Under the pieces are notes generated by a model that made no database searches, was not told the origin of the DNA, and saw only the letters and a program-made list of their open reading frames with translations. Positions 1 to 8,708 of a stretch of 14,984 nt of DNA are shown piece after piece; within the stretch, counting starts at the first letter, position 1, and each line of letters begins with the position of its first letter. The stretch is taken from positions 1-14,984 of the forward strand of contig CBDUQR010000056.1 of NCBI GenBank assembly GCA_965369655.1, written 5' to 3'. Made by a program: the position numbers and the translations under genes. This DNA is from an uncultured bacterium (GTDB lineage: Bacteria > Zixibacteria > MSB-5A5 > JAABVY01 > JAHJOQ01).

Positions 1-50
1 AACTCTCAAACCCACCTTAATCAACTGTCCGATATTCTGCAACCACCTCT
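1..50 (-). mobile_element. Left end of an IS3-family insertion sequence, continuing out of the window
   Basis: The reverse complement of 1-50 (AGAGGTGGTTGCAGAATATCGGACAGTTGATTAAGGTGGGTTTGAGAGTT) matches 6911-6960 at 47/50 nt. That copy directly precedes an RBS and an IS3 OrfA-like start. Similarity stops at 51/6910. Confidence 0.85.
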
Positions 51-630
51 CTGAATCAGCTAACAAAAGAGCGCGGTATCGAGAATCCTCAAGTAGCAGT
101 ACAACAGAGAAAGTATTAAGGCAGTCATTGAGTGTCTTTTGTGGCTCTAAAACCAGCTTCTTGAGAATACGTCGTGTCTGCTTTGCGTCAGGGGCAACAG
201 CTCTGATACGTAGATCATCATCATCAAGTAACAATGTGTCAACTGAGCAGGTTTGAAGTAACATATCAATATGTTTAGGAGGTTTGTAAATCCATTCCAT
301 CAGACGTCGATAGTAGTCCGCTGATTCGGGTGGATAGAATTGTAGATTGATCTCTTTAGGACTCAAGCCACAATCATAAAAGCGCTTGATGTTAATCGAA
401 TTCTGCGAGCAGTATTCCAGAAGTTCCAGCATACCCGAATAATGATCTTGGTGGGGATGTGTTAAGCATATGAAGTCAATCTCCGATACTGAGTGTTCTC
501 TCAGATAATCAAGCGCAGGAATAGTATCGTTCTTTCTACAGCAGTCAACAAGCCCCACTATCCCTCTGCTGGTGGTTATTACAATTGAATCACCGTGATT
601 AACATCAAAAATTCGAAGGGAAAAACTCAC
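51..630 (-). pseudogene. ComEC/Rec2-like MBL-fold metallo-hydrolase, interrupted by the IS end at 50
   Basis: Manual translation from GTG at 630, which overlaps the upstream TGA (GTGA): MSFSLRIFDVNHGDSIVITT...LVDC...IDFICLTHPHQDHYSG...NTFSVVLLL...ALLLADSE. This shows the DVxxGDS, HxHxDH (442-459), NxxSxV and LLx(G/A)D motifs. The frame runs into IS sequence after about 194 codons with no stop, which explains its absence from the ORF track. The later HHGS motif is not present in the window. Confidence 0.85.
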
Positions 631-1172
631 TTTTCTCGTTTCAGAGCATCACAGCGCATCTGATCAAGTCGTTCGCGCTCTTCTAAGCTCAACTCTGTAA
701 CAGCACTTCCAAAGTACACTAACCGAGTCTCAACTGCCGTGTTACCCTTTCTTATAGATATTAGGCCGACCTTGTCGCCAGGTCTAACGTGTTCAGCCCC
801 CAACTCTGTGAGAACCTCAATCGGAATAATCCTGTTGAATTTCTCGCTATTTTTCTCGAACTCGACATATGCAACATTGTCCTCAACACGTATGATCATG
901 CCGCTAATAAACTCGCGTTTCTTTGTAGCTTTCGACATTACTCTCGGAGCCTCGTGAACCTGTAATTCTCCAGCACCAAGAGTATCGGCATTCGTTTCTG
1001 AACTCATTAGCGATCCAGCAAGATACGTCCGAGTCCGCGCCCATTCCTCAACAGAAAAACGGATAGTGTCGCCATCAGTATGTGCTTGTGTGATCTCCGA
1101 GGTCGTCCTTGTATCGCTCGGACTTTCACCAGTCGCAAGCTTACGCTTATCAGAAATGTTTGAGAAAGTCAT
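627..1172 (-). CDS. Hypothetical protein; S/T/D/E-rich N-terminal region followed by a small beta-rich (possibly OB/S1-like) domain
   Basis: 181-aa ORF overlapping both neighbours (23 nt upstream, GTGA downstream). Alternating hydrophobic strands in FISGMIIRVEDNVAYVEF...VRPGDKVGLISI. Start codon uncertain. Confidence 0.7.
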   Translation of the reverse strand: MTFSNISDKRKLATGESPSDTRTTSEITQAHTDGDTIRFSVEEWARTRTYLAGSLMSSETNADTLGAGELQVHEAPRVMSKATKKREFISGMIIRVEDNVAYVEFEKNSEKFNRIIPIEVLTELGAEHVRPGDKVGLISIRKGNTAVETRLVYFGSAVTELSLEERERLDQMRCDALKREK

Positions 1173-1839
1173 CTTGTTTGATAAAGTTATCTACCAGTTT
1201 GGTATTCGATTTCACATATCTAATCAATTTGTCTTGTCCTGGTAATGGCCGGATTTCAGTACTAAACCGGTCAACATCGAAGATTATCCAAGTGTCATAT
1301 TCATCATCGAGTTCTCGAAAAGACAGTATCTTACGCTTGAATTCATCTTTGGTCATCACACCTGTCTTTAGCGAGATTTCTTCCTTTTTATCTTCGCCTT
1401 CTAATACTACCATGAAATCCCGAAGTTGGTTCTCCGACAGGGGCAAGTGATCAGCTTGTAACAGATGCCCCAAATATTTCTTTACAGCTTGATCGAAGTT
1501 GAGTTCTGGAACAGGCATCGCATGATATGTTCTGACACCAAGTCTAATCAGTTTCTTCACATCTGAATGTTTAAGGAAATCTACAAGTCGTTTCACCTCT
1601 ACCTCAAGAACAGTCATGTCCTCGATGTGTTCCACAGATATCCCCGCCCGCAAACTCTCAACGATTAGTTCGGAACTCCTATCATTCGACGTAAGTTTGG
1701 ATGATTTGATCCCTTCCTTGTAATCGATTCCTTCATATTCCAGCAAGATAGACTGAAGATACTTGGGTGCCACTTCGGTGAAATTGAGTATAGGGGGGTA
1801 CCTCAATTCTATCACTATTCTCTTTAATTCACAACTCAT
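1150..1839 (-). CDS. Hypothetical protein, TIGR04255-like family
   Basis: 229-aa ORF with its own promoter. The pattern RIVIELRY ... RLGVR ... IIFDVD resembles the E-x-R-F / RIGLRY / LDID pattern I recall for TIGR04255. The ORF is solid; the family call is by recognition only. Confidence 0.6.
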   Translation of the reverse strand: MSCELKRIVIELRYPPILNFTEVAPKYLQSILLEYEGIDYKEGIKSSKLTSNDRSSELIVESLRAGISVEHIEDMTVLEVEVKRLVDFLKHSDVKKLIRLGVRTYHAMPVPELNFDQAVKKYLGHLLQADHLPLSENQLRDFMVVLEGEDKKEEISLKTGVMTKDEFKRKILSFRELDDEYDTWIIFDVDRFSTEIRPLPGQDKLIRYVKSNTKLVDNFIKQDDFLKHF

Positions 1840-1845
1840 GTTCTA

Positions 1846-1873
1846 ATTATATAGTATTAAGGCAATATGTCAA
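1846..1873 (-). promoter_or_regulatory. Consensus sigma70 promoter, probably producing a leaderless mRNA
   Basis: TTGACA (1873-1868), 16-nt spacer, TATAAT (1851-1846), then only 6 nt before the ATG at 1839. No Shine-Dalgarno. Confidence 0.8.
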
Positions 1874-6910: not shown

Positions 6911-7072
6911 AGAGGTGGTTGCAGAATTTCGGACAGTTGATTAAGGTGGATTAGAGAGTTTTTTTGGAGGATCAACAGAATGAGAAAACGACGTAGCTTT
7001 TGCGCCGAATTCAAAGCCCGGGTTGCGTTTGATGCGCTGTCCGGTGCGCACACGATGCCCGAGTCGAGTAGG
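6911..7072 (+). mobile_element. Truncated IS3-family element: left end plus first ~30 codons of OrfA
   Basis: GGAGG (6966-6970) then ATG 6980: MRKRRSFCAEFKARVAFDALSGAHTMPE, matching the IS3 OrfA N-terminus. The rest of the ORF is antisense to the MauE gene. The right boundary is approximate. Confidence 0.85.
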
Positions 7073-7081
7073 ACAGGCGAA

Positions 7082-7537
7082 TCATATCCGCAGTTTATGA
7101 ATCGAGAGGAAGTCTTTTCCGAAGAAGTATATCTGGAGTCCCATCAACAGCAGCAAAATGTCGCGCCAGATCAGGGTGATTGCGCTGCCTTTCGCTCTGT
7201 CTGAAAGCGAGAAACATCCGCAGTTGATGTCGACGCCGCGAATGTAGACCGCCGTCAGCGCGATCAGGAACATCACGAGCATCACGTTGATGAGCGTCAC
7301 CGCGCCTCTTGGCCACATTCCGATAATAAGACAAATACCGGCGAGCATCTCGACCATCGGCATGAAAACAGCCAGGATATTCACGAGTGCTCCCGGCAGG
7401 ACATGGTAGTAATAGATCGCACGCGCGAACTGGTCGACGTACACAATCTTGTCTATCGCCGCGTAACAGAAGACGACGCCGAGAATCATCCGAAACAGCA
7501 GAGTCAGGTATTTGTTCGAGATCAAATCTTTCATCAT
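7082..7537 (-). CDS. MauE/DoxX family membrane protein
   Basis: Four TM segments with FRMILGVVFCYAAIDKI, PMVE, GVDINCGCF and IWRD, characteristic of MauE-like proteins. Confidence 0.9.
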   Translation of the reverse strand: MMKDLISNKYLTLLFRMILGVVFCYAAIDKIVYVDQFARAIYYYHVLPGALVNILAVFMPMVEMLAGICLIIGMWPRGAVTLINVMLVMFLIALTAVYIRGVDINCGCFSLSDRAKGSAITLIWRDILLLLMGLQIYFFGKDFLSIHKLRI

Positions 7538-8094
7538 CCCTCGACCTTTTCAATCGGCAATCCGGCCTTATCCCACCTTCGCCATCCCCCGAAGAATATC
7601 CGCACGTTCGTGTAGCCAAGGTCATCGCGGAGATAGCGAGCAAGATGCAGACTCGTTTCGCAATCGGCTCCGGAGCAGTATGTGACAATCAGCGTGTTTG
7701 AATCGAGAAGTGGTTCGATGATTGCCCACTGAACATCGAATTCCTCTTCCTCGGCCTCAAAAGTGAGCAGATAGGCTCCCTTTATGTGCCCGGATTCATA
7801 CTCGTCGGGGAACCGCGCGTCGATGAAGATTATCTCGGGATTCTGGTACAATGCGGATGCCTCGGCCAGACTCAGCAATGGCGGGTCGCCCGGCTCACAC
7901 GACAGGCAATCCCATGTGGAGTCGTCCTCGCTGTCCGCAAAGCTGGGCCAGTACCCGACCCACGCGATCCTGCTGCTCGAAAGCGAGTTGTTAAGGACTC
8001 CCGCGACGAGCGAGATTGCGAGGATGATTAGTATTTCAGTCAGCAGCTTCTTCATCAGATTTGTTTTGCCGATGCTCAGATTCACCTGAGCCAT
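7534..8094 (-). CDS. Membrane-anchored rhodanese-like domain protein
   Basis: N-terminal TM, IDARFPDEYESGHIKGA, active-site loop YCSGADC and GGWRRW. ATGA overlap with the MauE gene. The start could be the second Met at 8055. Confidence 0.9.
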   Translation of the reverse strand: MAQVNLSIGKTNLMKKLLTEILIILAISLVAGVLNNSLSSSRIAWVGYWPSFADSEDDSTWDCLSCEPGDPPLLSLAEASALYQNPEIIFIDARFPDEYESGHIKGAYLLTFEAEEEEFDVQWAIIEPLLDSNTLIVTYCSGADCETSLHLARYLRDDLGYTNVRIFFGGWRRWDKAGLPIEKVEG

Positions 8095-8163
8095 AGATTA
8101 CTGTCAAAACTCAGTATATGTATACACCTGCGAGGCTGAATGTTCCGGCTGCCCCTCAAAATA

Positions 8164-8673
8164 CTACTTTTTCAGTGTGAATTCCCAGCCGCACCAATAA
8201 TCGCGTTCCTGTTCATCGGGCGGGCAGGCGAGGCAAATCACCTCGATCCGTGGATCAATAGTCTTCGTAAACGTTTCGTACTCGATCACTCCGACCTGCT
8301 TGCACGGGAACGGCGGCATGTTCTTGCGATGCCTCGCATCCTGAACCCGGCATGCGATCATTTTCAGGACGAGCTTGTCGGGCGATGGGCGCGTGATCTC
8401 CTGCGTGTTGATGTACGCGTAGCACCGGTAGTTCAGACATTGTTCGAGCGCATCGAGTCCGCCTCCCGGATCGATACCGAGAGATTTCATGATTCGCTTC
8501 GCCTCGATTGGCGAGAAGCGTCTCCATGCTTCCTTGTCGAGTTCGATCGCCGCATCCATGCCATATTTCTGTTCGGCAGCCTGAAACCAGAGTCCATCCA
8601 TAGCCAGCCAGCGCTTTGCCAACTCGGCAAGCTGCTCTCGAAACTGTTGCTGTGTCATATCGGTATTGTTCAT
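8164..8673 (-). CDS. DUF6125-like protein with conserved cysteines
   Basis: WLAMDGLWF, CRVQxAR, PCKxVG, IDPRIxxxCxxCPPD and WCxWxF motifs; family recognised from memory. Confidence 0.75.
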   Translation of the reverse strand: MNNTDMTQQQFREQLAELAKRWLAMDGLWFQAAEQKYGMDAAIELDKEAWRRFSPIEAKRIMKSLGIDPGGGLDALEQCLNYRCYAYINTQEITRPSPDKLVLKMIACRVQDARHRKNMPPFPCKQVGVIEYETFTKTIDPRIEVICLACPPDEQERDYWCGWEFTLKK

Positions 8674-8680
8674 GCGCGAT

Positions 8681-8708
8681 AAGATATGGATTACGGCCGG
8701 ATTGTCAA
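8681..8708 (-). promoter_or_regulatory. Putative sigma70 promoter, probably leaderless
   Basis: TTGACA (8708-8703), 16 nt, TATCTT (8686-8681), 7 nt, then ATG 8673. No Shine-Dalgarno. Confidence 0.6.

Follow-up and report, generated by a model that had tools for sequence, protein, structure and literature searches.

The window, i.e. the whole stretch of 14,984 nucleotides analysed here, corresponds to one entire contig and carries at its left end a nuclease cassette of three components, apparently gained by horizontal transfer and belonging to a recurrent but unnamed type. Our preferred reading, held with moderate confidence, is that this cassette is a modular nuclease system, for defence or abortive infection, of a kind not yet described; the copy in this genome is inactivated, being broken by an insertion sequence (IS). 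The three genes (hereafter the trio) are all on the minus strand. P1 (1839..1150) is an ORF of 229 aa with a TBP-like fold, P2 (1172..627) is an ORF of 181 aa with an OB barrel and a helix behind a disordered tail, and P3, an MBL, is represented by its N-terminal part (630..51, codons 1-193), the ORF being open at the window end (630..1). Read directly from the sequence, P1 and P2 overlap by 23 nt (1150-1172) and P2 and P3 by GTGA (627-630), as the first-pass annotation of this DNA had it. A promoter-like site, TTGACA-16 nt-TATAAT, is present at 1873-1846 on the minus strand and matches the sigma-70 consensus at 12/12 positions; it is the sole full match among the 10 promoter-like sites in 1-2400, and shuffled sequences reach a mean score of 5.4 compared to the 12 observed, which bears out the perfect promoter reported earlier. 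The ATG of P1 is only 6 nt past the -10 box, a distance which suggests that the trio mRNA is probably leaderless. The region 51-1873 has a GC content of 0.423, about 4 SD under the average of the genome (0.518, sd 0.023), and only 0.25% of 5655 genome windows of equal size are as low: the AT-richness first seen in spot counts thus holds against the whole genome.

The break in the cassette is located at the very start of the window. Bases 1..50 are the terminal 50 bases (left end) of an IS3-like element, a repeat found elsewhere in the genome, and the P3 gene is interrupted by this insertion at base 50/51; it is therefore cut after codon 193. The C-terminal fragment of P3, which contains the HHGS motif, was found at G000:C36:27628-28046, at the end of contig C36, and a CAG target-site duplication is present on both sides (window 51-53 and C36:28047-28049). 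The 50-55 bases of the left end recur at the start of C46, at the end of C98, at C28:22329-22378 and at window 6911-6960, while the other end (C36:28050-28101) recurs at the end of C21, in C49 and in C7, after a transposase C-terminus. The two ends have in common TGGT..CAG..GGACAGTT..TTAAGGTG; a short ORF comes after one left end, and a transposase-like C-terminus comes before one right end. IS3-family elements end in inverted repeats that match imperfectly, duplicate 3 bp of the target and encode a DDE (rve) transposase in orfA/orfB, and it is from these features, the interior being unassembled, that the interrupting element is provisionally placed in this family. When the two halves of P3 are joined without the IS, they form 333 codons with no stop and with 39% identity to P0004 over the full length. 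The repeated IS end accounts for the contig break at the window start, and the interruption at 50/51 explains why the first-pass annotation placed the start of the locus at 51. That annotation did not state the split of P3 by an IS, which is thus a new observation. Since P3 is split, the cassette is inactive in this genome.

P3 is a stand-alone MBL of the ComEC type. Its HxHxDH site is at residues 58-63, intact as claimed from the sequence, and across 23 sequences the invariant MBL residues are H58, H60, D62, H63, D191, H218, H219 and G220. The elements of a ComEC-type MBL nuclease domain are all found, namely HxHxDH, a later Asp and HHGS, the latter on the C36 fragment. P3 matches Lactamase_B in Pfam (3.2e-5) and shows 40-45% identity to relatives 336-338 aa long. 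Full-length MBLs of the trio, at 331-387 aa, contain nothing but the MBL domain, which agrees with the earlier remark that the ComEC membrane domain is missing. When the MBL profile was compared with the PDB, 6 of the 6 matches were ComEC or competence proteins (9ic4, 2.7e-21; 30bt, 5e-18), and PADLOC models matching P3 were those of LmuA (Lamassu, 3e-17), RTasMBL (DRT), PDC-M48B and Avs1a. The assignment to ComEC-type MBLs, and the likeness to MBL effectors of known defence systems, are therefore upheld by both searches; the matches to LmuA, RTasMBL and Avs1a are at the level of the MBL domain only. P3 was rejected as a ComEC/Rec2 protein proper: it lacks the polytopic competence domain and a fused OB, its relatives of 331-387 aa are covered by the MBL, and TIGR00361 matches P3 at model positions 443-586 only (E 1.6e-4; the cut-off of this model is 190 bits). 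The 6A-MBL system, a ubiquitin-related system of Pseudomonas, gave a weak NCBIfam match (E 1.9e-4); apart from the MBL fold, any kinship with it was rejected.

P2 is a small OB protein. Residues 1-80 are not conserved and are predicted to be disordered, and in the AF2 model residues 85-156 form a five-stranded OB-like barrel, followed by a C-terminal helix (163-179). The word-index search with P2 returned no cluster beyond the window's own. The protein has a weak S1 match (E 1.3e-3) and VIA matches to OB folds (Z 5-6.5); Foldseek gave nothing at E<=1e-3, its best rows being nonetheless OB folds. An HMM of the C-terminal domain identified a match directly upstream of the MBL gene in 34 other loci. 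No conserved catalytic or signalling residue is present, only R114 being nearly invariant. Homology with the OB region of ComEC was considered and is unsupported (hhalign probability 0.04%). A complex prediction had been suggested in the first-pass annotation; run for P2 residues 100-202 with the MBL of Zixibacteria orthologues, it scored 0.87, compared to 0.01 for the best of 3 controls. This score is the model's own confidence, built on alignments made for this analysis. Of 157 solved complexes 116 attain the mark, as do 2 of 215 mismatched pairs; because of those alignments, these counts apply only roughly. The three runs agreed in at least 85% of contacts, with a partner pLDDT of at least 79. 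In the model, P2 contacts MBL residues 88-126, 163-165, 249 and 281-305, and this interface does not include the catalytic residues 58-63, 191 and 218-219, so P2 is not modelled as a plug of the active site. These results support P2 as a predicted binding partner of the MBL.

To find relatives of P1 an exhaustive phmmer search was needed, the word-index search having recovered the window's own cluster only: 23 representatives were identified among 1.84 billion sequences. Residues E11, E70, R99, G101, R103, D141, G160, E166, D188 and D190 are invariant or nearly so in their alignment (A2). The AF2 model of P1 (pLDDT 92.2, pTM 0.90) shows two repeats of a beta-sheet/helix unit arranged as a pseudo-dimer, i.e. 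a predicted tandem TBP-like (helix-grip) protein. TBPs are the top matches with Foldseek (E 1.3e-5), and with VIA the top matches are a TBP (Z 8.3, rmsd 4.7, 163 aligned) and RepDE (Z 8.0); these Z values are middling, so the TBP assignment applies at the level of fold class only. An Atlas search with P1 returned unnamed clusters only. The first gene had been described as TIGR04255-like. This is true in a remote sense: hhalign between A2 and an alignment of 10 true TIGR04255 members (A6) gives a probability of 85.7% (E 5.5e-6, 200 columns), and the A2 profile cross-matches the true TIGR04255 genes G237:C35 (4e-7) and G232:C61 (1e-6). The TIGR04255 HMM itself, however, has no match to P1 at E<=1 (its curated cut-off is 30 bits), matches 1 of the 23 members of the P1 family (E 0.032) and has no match at E<=0.01 in the window's own genome, whereas true members exist in 35 of the 285 genomes of the phylum. 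From the full-length profile homology and the common motifs, P1 is thus a remote member of the TIGR04255 superfamily, below the family cut-off.

The two families share a strand-1 Glu, an R-x-G-x-R strand, a D-x-D strand, a similar length and a colinear profile match, and both open tight three-gene operons. Their partners are different: a HEPN-like, 'SQSCDL' or PIN protein for TIGR04255, OB and MBL proteins for P1. In the operons headed by true TIGR04255 genes, the final gene is HEPN-like in 5 of 12 cases and PIN in 1 of 12. TIGR04255 stands in NCBIfam as 'TIGR04255 family protein' with no function assigned. It was unmentioned in the papers reached by a full-text literature search, and none of the papers listed by a search on TBP-like proteins and anti-phage activity dealt with this family. 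NCBIfam and PADLOC name none of P1, P2, the P1-like proteins, the small membrane partners described below or the partners of true TIGR04255 proteins. P1 and P2 have no match to a named system in PADLOC, NCBIfam or Pfam, in agreement with the failure of the first-pass annotation to recognise one.

Among 160 MBL-seeded loci which were fetched, P1, P2 and MBL occur in identical order and strand at 22 other distinct loci, and at 2 partial ones, so that the co-occurrence of the three genes is established. They mostly overlap or abut there too. Hosts are Zixibacteria, Bacteroidota (Flavobacteriia), Myxococcota (Polyangiaceae) and metagenomes; among the intact copies are L002 of Psychroserpens mesophilus JCM 13413 and the Zixibacteria locus L001. 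The distribution is sporadic: the P1 family is present in only 15 of the 285 genomes of the phylum and absent from a same-genus genome, and the trio could be shown in only 2 of these 15, the window's own and G263 (L177). From the 14 other genomes with a match, some of the matches being true TIGR04255 genes, 9 further P1-family loci were fetched; in 8 of these 9, P1 pairs with a small membrane protein, without OB and MBL, and P1 is therefore not tied to a nuclease. In the same-family genome G200 the site is empty, which together with the low GC supports the horizontal acquisition put forward earlier. The island in this genome consists of the trio alone. Its right border, upstream of a MutL-like gene, is the only one that aligns with G200, and no direct repeats or shared intergenic sequence were found at the left one.

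The neighbourhoods give a mixed answer to the suggestion of a defence-island context: clear defence-system neighbours are present in only 2 of the 11 long trio loci, whereas L004, L087 and the window itself lie among housekeeping genes. L095 adjoins DndD/PbeC-, DndH/HerA- and type III R-M-like genes; L026 adjoins a DRT-associated DUF1848 gene and an SNF2-methylase gene, as well as an IS21 fragment. An integrase, Rep and MNT/HEPN are neighbours of L109, and toxin-antitoxin genes those of L093 and L091. Directly upstream of the closest relative, L001/L084, is the gene of a large terminase subunit (Pfam Terminase_6N, 1e-10).

The OB-MBL pair is also found as a module with other partners. In five loci (L003, L106, L133, L099 and L094) the P2-type OB domain is the C-terminal domain of receiver-type proteins, whose genes are flanked by GHKL/histidine-kinase genes on one side and by the MBL gene on the other; L003 and L106 also have an EcoRII-like gene and a C5 methylase next to them. 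Within the OB-linked MBL clade (100/98), the 5 MBLs linked to kinases group as a single clade (99/98). These predicted cassettes resemble the trio in that an OB-ended protein and, after it, a ComEC-type MBL belonging to one and the same clade make up the end of both, and in being multi-gene and horizontally mobile with a separate upstream sensing part. The trio differs by having no methylase, kinase or receiver, P1 being in their place, and by the disordered N-terminus of P2. Partner swapping, which the first-pass annotation had proposed to look for, is seen in three forms: OB-MBL after kinase/receiver genes, P1 relatives with a membrane protein, and TIGR04255 before HEPN or PIN.

Several known systems come close to parts of this arrangement. 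Characterised gated ComEC-like MBL effectors all have, to our knowledge, a partner protease, and the papers listed by a literature search on ComEC, MBL and phage defence all dealt with protease-MBL modules or competence. In Hachiman and AVAST, experiments have established that ComEC-like MBLs are gated DNases (PMC12799240). Protease-gated modules are likewise described for Hachiman (HamM), AVAST type 1 (Avs1a), Lamassu, DRT and Canu (PMC12799240; 10.1101/2025.09.03.673762; 10.1101/2025.11.14.688446), their defining feature being an adjacent protease, trypsin-like or of the caspase type, which in most cases is joined to the sensor and which cleaves the MBL proenzyme. The trio shares with them a stand-alone ComEC-like MBL gene, family-specific insertions and an effector placed beside a variable sensor. 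It was rejected as a protease-MBL pair of the Avs1, Hachiman-M, Lamassu-MBL, DRT-MBL or Canu type, no protease being present in or beside it: none of 128 neighbour proteins in the 11 long trio loci has a Pfam match to a trypsin-like or caspase protease, nor do P1 and P2 have any protease match. The partner here is a non-enzymatic OB protein, predicted to bind the MBL insertion, so that any gating in the trio would be non-proteolytic.

Ambrosia (AbrR-AbrA-AbrB-AbrC-AbrD), validated in Pseudomonas aeruginosa, is composed of an XRE regulator, an N6 methylase, a sensor kinase, a REC-wHTH receiver and an HNH nuclease, and is proposed to act by transcriptional control through the wHTH receiver (bioRxiv 10.1101/2025.09.30.679545). 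None of its defining domains is in the trio, which was therefore rejected as an Ambrosia: Ambrosia proper has an HNH nuclease and a wHTH receiver, the trio an MBL and an OB protein. As its receiver ends in a wHTH, proposed to serve transcriptional control, and not in an OB output domain, the parallel is one of architecture only. The anti-phage toxin RnlA has the organisation TBP1-TBP2-HEPN and needs TBP1 for substrate binding (PMC8266594). RnlA/LsoA (RnlAB, LsoAB) and the trio thus have in common two tandem TBP-like domains and a nuclease in a conflict system, and an RnlA TBP domain is among the fold matches of P1 (6y2r_A, Z 6.0, 75 residues). This likeness is weak and at fold level only; the TBP domains of RnlA are fused to a HEPN RNase, with RnlB as antitoxin, whereas the trio has a separate TBP-like protein and an MBL nuclease. 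ComEC/Rec2 remains the closest solved MBL to P3 by sequence, with HxHxDH and HHGS, but the trio has no membrane competence domain, has its OB on a separate gene, is sporadic and lies on foreign DNA.

As neither P1 nor P2 has a PADLOC match, any link to defence comes from the MBL and from the modules shared with other cassettes. The most likely role of intact copies would be that of an anti-phage or anti-mobile-DNA system of the abortive-infection type. P3 would be the effector, a cytoplasmic ComEC-type MBL DNase. P2 would be its obligate partner, with the OB barrel and C-terminal helix clamping the MBL insertion (residues ~88-126) and the C-terminal extension; we propose that, by this clamp, it gates or positions the nuclease. 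P1 would be the upstream sensor or regulator, in place of the histidine kinase and receiver domain of the sister cassettes, and probably works via the disordered N-terminal tail of P2, or via nucleic acid bound on its conserved charged beta-sheet face. The interpretation given in the first-pass annotation is partly upheld: it survives for an acquired, recurrent cassette with a ComEC-type MBL and a first gene remotely related to TIGR04255, and the defence context is mixed. A broader generalization, which we regard as possible and distinctly more speculative, is that tandem TBP proteins of the TIGR04255 superfamily are a widespread unrecognised class of sensors or regulators that head small conflict cassettes with swappable killers, following a 'split RnlA' logic. 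The swappable parts may be HEPN, PIN, 'SQSCDL', the two-helix membrane protein and the OB-adaptor with its ComEC-type DNase, and OB may be a new non-proteolytic, non-transcriptional MBL gate into which P1 and phosphorelay receivers are plugged.

An unlikely reading, although the strongest of the rivals, is that the trio serves mobile elements as an addiction module akin to toxin-antitoxin systems, with the MBL as toxin, P2 as antitoxin and P1 as regulator or chaperone of the P2 tail, stabilising its carrier element instead of sensing phage. Many labile antitoxins have a long disordered tail, as P2 does, and the tight translational coupling of the genes, the predicted P2-MBL complex and the integrase/Rep (L109), IS21 (L026), terminase (L084) and toxin-antitoxin (L091, L093) neighbours are all consistent with it; an IS in the putative toxin gene would fit counter-selection of the toxin. 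The modelled interface does not, however, include the catalytic residues, and the same OB is the output domain of receivers in the kinase cassettes, which suggests transmission of a signal over plain neutralisation. As for a chaperone, TAC systems combine a SecB-like chaperone with a HigBA- or MqsRA-type pair; the fold of P1 is TBP-like and not SecB-like, SecB chains being absent from the 48 Foldseek and 50 VIA rows listed for it, and P2 and P3 have no match to HigB, MqsR or an antitoxin family in Pfam, NCBIfam or PADLOC. Antitoxin and chaperone roles for members of the trio are guesses, and a toxin-antitoxin mode of action and a defence role can both hold.

Quite improbable in our view is a role outside conflict, in which the trio would process or salvage nucleic acids in the cytoplasm, for DNA turnover or repair or to scavenge nutrients; it would then be a soluble counterpart of ComEC's OB and MBL parts, with P1 as nucleic-acid-binding subunit. 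ComEC itself combines an OB domain with an MBL nuclease domain, ComEC-like genes with MBL C-termini are found in L012, L017, L053 and L062, RNase HIII and RnlA bind nucleic acids through TBP-like domains, and the housekeeping surroundings of L004, L087 and the window are compatible with such a function. Against this stand the sporadic distribution, the strongly deviant GC and empty site, the absence of a detectable sequence relation between the OB of P2 and that of ComEC, and the OB-MBL pair in restriction/methylase/kinase cassettes; P3 is moreover dispensable here, since the IS has broken it. We consider least probable of all, and very unlikely, a module borne by phages or satellites for host-DNA degradation, superinfection exclusion or counter-defence, present in bacteria only as prophage cargo. 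The terminase gene of L001/L084 points in this direction, as do Uroviricota, the commonest phylum in one of the three nearest Atlas clusters, and the viral BFVD protein A0A515MGR4, which has the same tandem fold (E 1.7e-8, TM 0.58/0.64). But no relative was confirmed in 2.9 million viral contigs scanned once with A3, an alignment of P1, and once with A4, an alignment of the MBL, both scans being pattern-based and therefore able to miss distant viral copies; PHROGs gave nothing significant for P1 or P2, 10 of the 11 long trio loci have no phage structural genes, and the island here carries no gene besides the trio.

ComEC-like MBL nucleases have only recently been recognised as gated death effectors in several anti-phage systems. 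If the defence reading is true, the trio would add a second control principle, in which the insertion of the nuclease itself is bound by an OB-fold adaptor that takes its input from a TIGR04255-like protein or from a kinase-receiver relay, and TIGR04255 would gain its first functional context. The decayed copy in this genome has its value as a pointer to the family, intact copies of which exist in cultured Bacteroidota and make the prediction directly testable.

The trio was analyzed within the 2.99-Mb, 100-contig genome of which the window is one complete contig (C56). The first-pass annotation had described three overlapping genes behind a perfect promoter in AT-rich DNA, and this description was borne out. 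Each gene is read from the minus strand: P1 (1839..1150, 229 aa), P2 (1172..627, 181 aa), which overlaps P1 by 23 nt, and P3 (630..1), which overlaps P2 by GTGA and is open at the contig end. The promoter-like sequence TTGACA-16-TATAAT at 1873-1846 scores 12/12 against the consensus. Since the ATG of P1 stands only 6 nt past the -10 box, the transcript is likely leaderless, judging from sequence. The GC content of 51-1873 is 0.423 vs a genome mean of 0.518 (sd 0.023; same-size windows), and values as low are found in 0.25% of 5655 same-size windows of the genome.

P3, a ComEC-type metallo-beta-lactamase (MBL), is broken in the window, where about 193 native codons are left vs 336-338 aa in relatives. 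Bases 1-50 of the window are repeated at the start of contig C46, at the end of C98, inside C28 and at 6911-6960 of the window itself, where the copy precedes a short transposase-like ORF. A search of the same genome with the Zixibacteria orthologue located the missing C-terminal part, with its HHGS motif, on the minus strand of contig C36, right at its end (27628-28050). The final 52 bases of C36 are the opposite end of the repeat, which is also found at the end of C21, and in C49 and C7 right after the C-terminus of a transposase-like ORF. The two ends are alike as imperfect inverted repeats, and CAG is present at both junctions. Rejoining P3 in silico, by removal of both repeat ends and one CAG copy, gave a frame of 999 nt (333 codons, no stop), 39% identical to the full length of the MBL relative P0004; in the rejoined protein HxHxDH stands at residue 58 and HHGS at 218. 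We provisionally call the interrupting element, whose interior is unassembled, IS3-like, from general features of that family. In this genome the trio is a pseudogene-bearing remnant under every reading weighed here. A degenerate second left end of the IS is present at 6911-7362 (94% identical to bases 1-50, then the short transposase-like ORF); its fragments match C28:22227-22378 (93%) and C25:26964-27242 (90%). It sits in the GC dip, flanked on one side by an unknown ORF of 230 aa and on the other by additional unknown ORFs (7095-8682) without Pfam match.

The insertion site was examined in relatives. In G200, a genome of the same family, a TonB receptor and a sodium:solute symporter (72% identical) are directly followed by a MutL-like gene (92% identical), which is the gene ending C36 in the window's genome; the trio was not found between symporter and MutL-like gene in G200. 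Because G200 joins these two genes directly, the adjacency of C56 and C36 is independently supported. The G200 alignment of the region upstream of the MutL-like gene starts about 35 nt past the MBL stop, which, with the trio-free site, indicates that the island is the trio alone: it was inserted between two conserved genes, and the IS insertion came afterwards. Among relatives the site downstream of the symporter is variable (L187, L188, L189, L190). In a same-genus genome the place is taken by a different segment, of low GC (0.434), that includes a membrane-like ORF of 355 aa (G201; L190 962-2462), and in two same-family genomes, G197 and G198, by a TrkA-like gene; the site looks like a small integration hotspot. 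Also beside the MutL-like (PF13941) gene, at G000:C36:14402-24206 (L164 403-10207), a three-gene unit is present in three tandem copies (~290 aa, ~215 aa, and ~415 aa with DUF6754, 3e-118 to 3e-126), which makes it a triplicated operon.

An MBL-seeded fetch of 80 genome loci and 80 metagenome loci was used to follow the trio elsewhere. In 34 distinct loci other than the window, an HMM detected the C-terminal domain of P2 directly upstream of the MBL. With an expanded P1 HMM, P1 was directly upstream of P2 in 22 of the 34, with a partial copy in two others that lie at contig ends; the HMM also recovered, at E 1e-29 to 1e-33, four of these 22 that were absent from its training set. Order, strand and tight spacing are constant in all loci examined. 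The closest relative is the locus of a Zixibacteria MAG (its three proteins are 34%, 38% and 44% identical); other named hosts are Psychroserpens mesophilus and MAGs assigned to Flavobacteriales and Polyangiaceae, one each. In the remaining loci having enough upstream sequence, P1 is replaced. Two of them (L003, L106) encode a C5 methylase, EcoRII-C and, in a protein of 905-923 aa, EcoRII-N, MORC-type GHKL and histidine-kinase ATPase domains; the next protein ends in the P2 OB domain, and the MBL follows it. L133 carries a kinase and a Response_reg::OB protein, and L099 and L094 kinase genes upstream. In the MBL tree, 23 OB-linked MBLs are separated from four ComEC MBL domains (support 100/98), and the five kinase-linked MBLs form a single clade (99/98) among trio-linked ones. 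The OB-MBL pair thus behaves as one module, whose upstream partner apparently changed once in this sequence tree, in a direction that depends on the outgroup root. A related MBL of an Anaeromicrobium MAG (L007 3252-7014) comes directly after, and overlaps, the gene of a 907-aa N6 methylase/Eco57I-type fusion, with no OB gene; this context looks restriction-like.

P3 is a stand-alone MBL. All solved structures matched by its profile are ComEC or competence proteins (6/6 matches, best 2.7e-21), and it also matches PADLOC MBL models from Lamassu, DRT, PDC-M48 and Avs1. In P2, the first ~80 residues are poorly conserved and unstructured in the model, residues 85-156 form a five-stranded barrel and 163-179 a helix. 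In VIA the barrel groups with OB folds (eIF5A/EF-P, cold-shock, S1/S17, PAN; Z 5-6.5); Foldseek returned nothing at E<=1e-3, though its top rows are OB folds. R114 is the sole nearly invariant residue. A complex was modelled from the Zixibacteria MBL (23-sequence alignment) and residues 100-202 of its P2 (25-sequence alignment). It scored 0.87, the best of three controls reaching 0.01, with at least 85% of contacts common to three runs and a partner pLDDT of at least 79. Of 157 solved complexes, 116 attain the mark it reached, as do 2 of 215 mismatched pairs, counts that are only approximate here because our own alignments were used. Predicted contacts on the MBL are residues 88-126, 163-165, 249 and the C-terminal extension 281-305, leaving out the metal-binding residues; in the alignment, the more distant MBL P0006 lacks most of segment 88-126. 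The model supports binding of P2 to the MBL. The P2 tail, otherwise unconserved, has a motif S-x-N/S-F-x5-L/F-x2-L-L/F (alignment columns ~140-175) common to one subclade (L092, L103, L118, L120, L130, L151, L152), a candidate short linear binding site whose partner is perhaps P1.

P1 had no significant match in Pfam, PADLOC or PHROGs and no TIGR04255 match in NCBIfam. An exhaustive phmmer search of 1.84 billion representatives gave 23 related proteins, in whose alignment E70, R99, G101, D141 and D190 are invariant and E11, R103, G160, E166 and D188 nearly so; all lie within or beside beta strands of the AF2 model (pLDDT 92.2, pTM 0.90). Archaeal and eukaryotic TBPs lead the fold matches (Foldseek E 1.3e-5; VIA Z 8.3, rmsd 4.7, 163 aligned), with RepDE (Z 8.0), McsB (Z 7.6) and an RnlA TBP domain (Z 6.0 over 75 residues) also matched by VIA. 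The model thereby assigns P1 to the tandem TBP-like pseudo-dimers, and as the Z values are middling only this fold class is claimed. The first-pass label "TIGR04255-like" stands at the profile level but not for the HMM itself: against ten true TIGR04255 members of same-phylum genomes, the P1 profile aligned with 85.7% probability (E 5.5e-6, 200 columns), pairing the strand-1 Glu, the R-x-G-x-R strand and the D-x-D strand, while the HMM picked up one of the 23 family members (E 0.032) and gave no match in the genome that the window belongs to.

Partners change on the P1 side, too. The P1 profile matched in 15 of 285 genomes of the phylum, the same-genus genome being without match. Nine such loci besides the window's were fetched: OB and MBL genes accompany P1 in one (G263, probably the Zixibacteria relative), and in the other eight (L178-L185) neither is present and the next gene encodes a protein of 115-161 aa, possibly acting at the membrane: its N-terminus is Lys-rich, its middle part is of low complexity, and two hydrophobic C-terminal helices can be made out by eye (masked X residues are included in L182). 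True TIGR04255 genes head tight operons in 12 loci of the same phylum (L165-L176), with at least three kinds of three-gene arrangement: in five loci the second product has ~180 aa and the third ~120-158 aa, the third ones forming one BLAST cluster with a member that matches Pfam HEPN (2.4e-9); in four the second product has ~140 aa and the third, of ~180 aa, bears an SQSCDL motif ('SQSCDL...PYREHLSQAFARFFMRVGLP'); in one a protein of 81 aa is joined by a PIN protein; one (L176) has two downstream genes clustering with none of the others; and one (L167) reaches the contig edge. These partners are unnamed in NCBIfam and PADLOC.

The neighbourhood was considered in 11 long trio loci (128 neighbour proteins; window and C36 counted as one). 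Clear defence neighbours are present in two: L095 (DndD/PbeC 2.6e-58, DndH/HerA, type III restriction and methylase) and L026 (DRT-associated DUF1848 3.5e-42, SNF2-methylase). Three loci have genes of toxin-antitoxin or candidate-defence kind: L091 (zeta toxin, XRE, Uma2/PDC-S03), L093 (Gp49-HTH, PIN) and L109 (MNT/HEPN). Mobile-element marks are an IstB fragment in L026, integrase, Rep and HTH_17 in L109, a terminase in L084, HTH_17 in L002, two RadC genes in L151 and the IS of the window; L004 and L087 have housekeeping genes only. This fits accessory cargo of defence flavour, the figures being raw counts and not a statistical enrichment. The terminase large subunit gene of the Zixibacteria relative (L084 4349-5677 = L001 1307-2635; Terminase_6N, 1e-10) lies on the same strand 60 nt upstream of the trio, with a sulfatase gene and several unnamed small ORFs downstream; the region is possibly a prophage remnant.

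According to PMC12799240, insertions keep the ComEC-like MBLs of Hachiman and AVAST closed, as DNase proenzymes, and cutting by a partner protease releases them; according to PMC8266594, RnlA is an anti-phage HEPN toxin whose substrate binding needs its first TBP-like domain. Given these precedents, the most economical reading by analogy is that P3 would be a DNase effector, P2 its bound gate or adaptor, working on the MBL insertion without proteolysis, and P1 the signal-receiving part, the positional equivalent of kinase plus receiver. We give this joint reading about an even chance. That the trio is a toxin-antitoxin-like addiction module, a reading which overlaps with it, seems rather unlikely; a housekeeping role in nucleic-acid processing is less probable still, and we consider phage cargo quite improbable.

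P1 and P2 are blank in PADLOC, NCBIfam and Pfam, and the trio has no name in the tools and papers searched, which covered TIGR04255, TBP-like proteins in anti-phage roles and ComEC-type MBLs in defence. Both the nuclease and the modular logic belong to a known kind; what is new is the candidate sensor P1, the OB adaptor and the way the two are combined.
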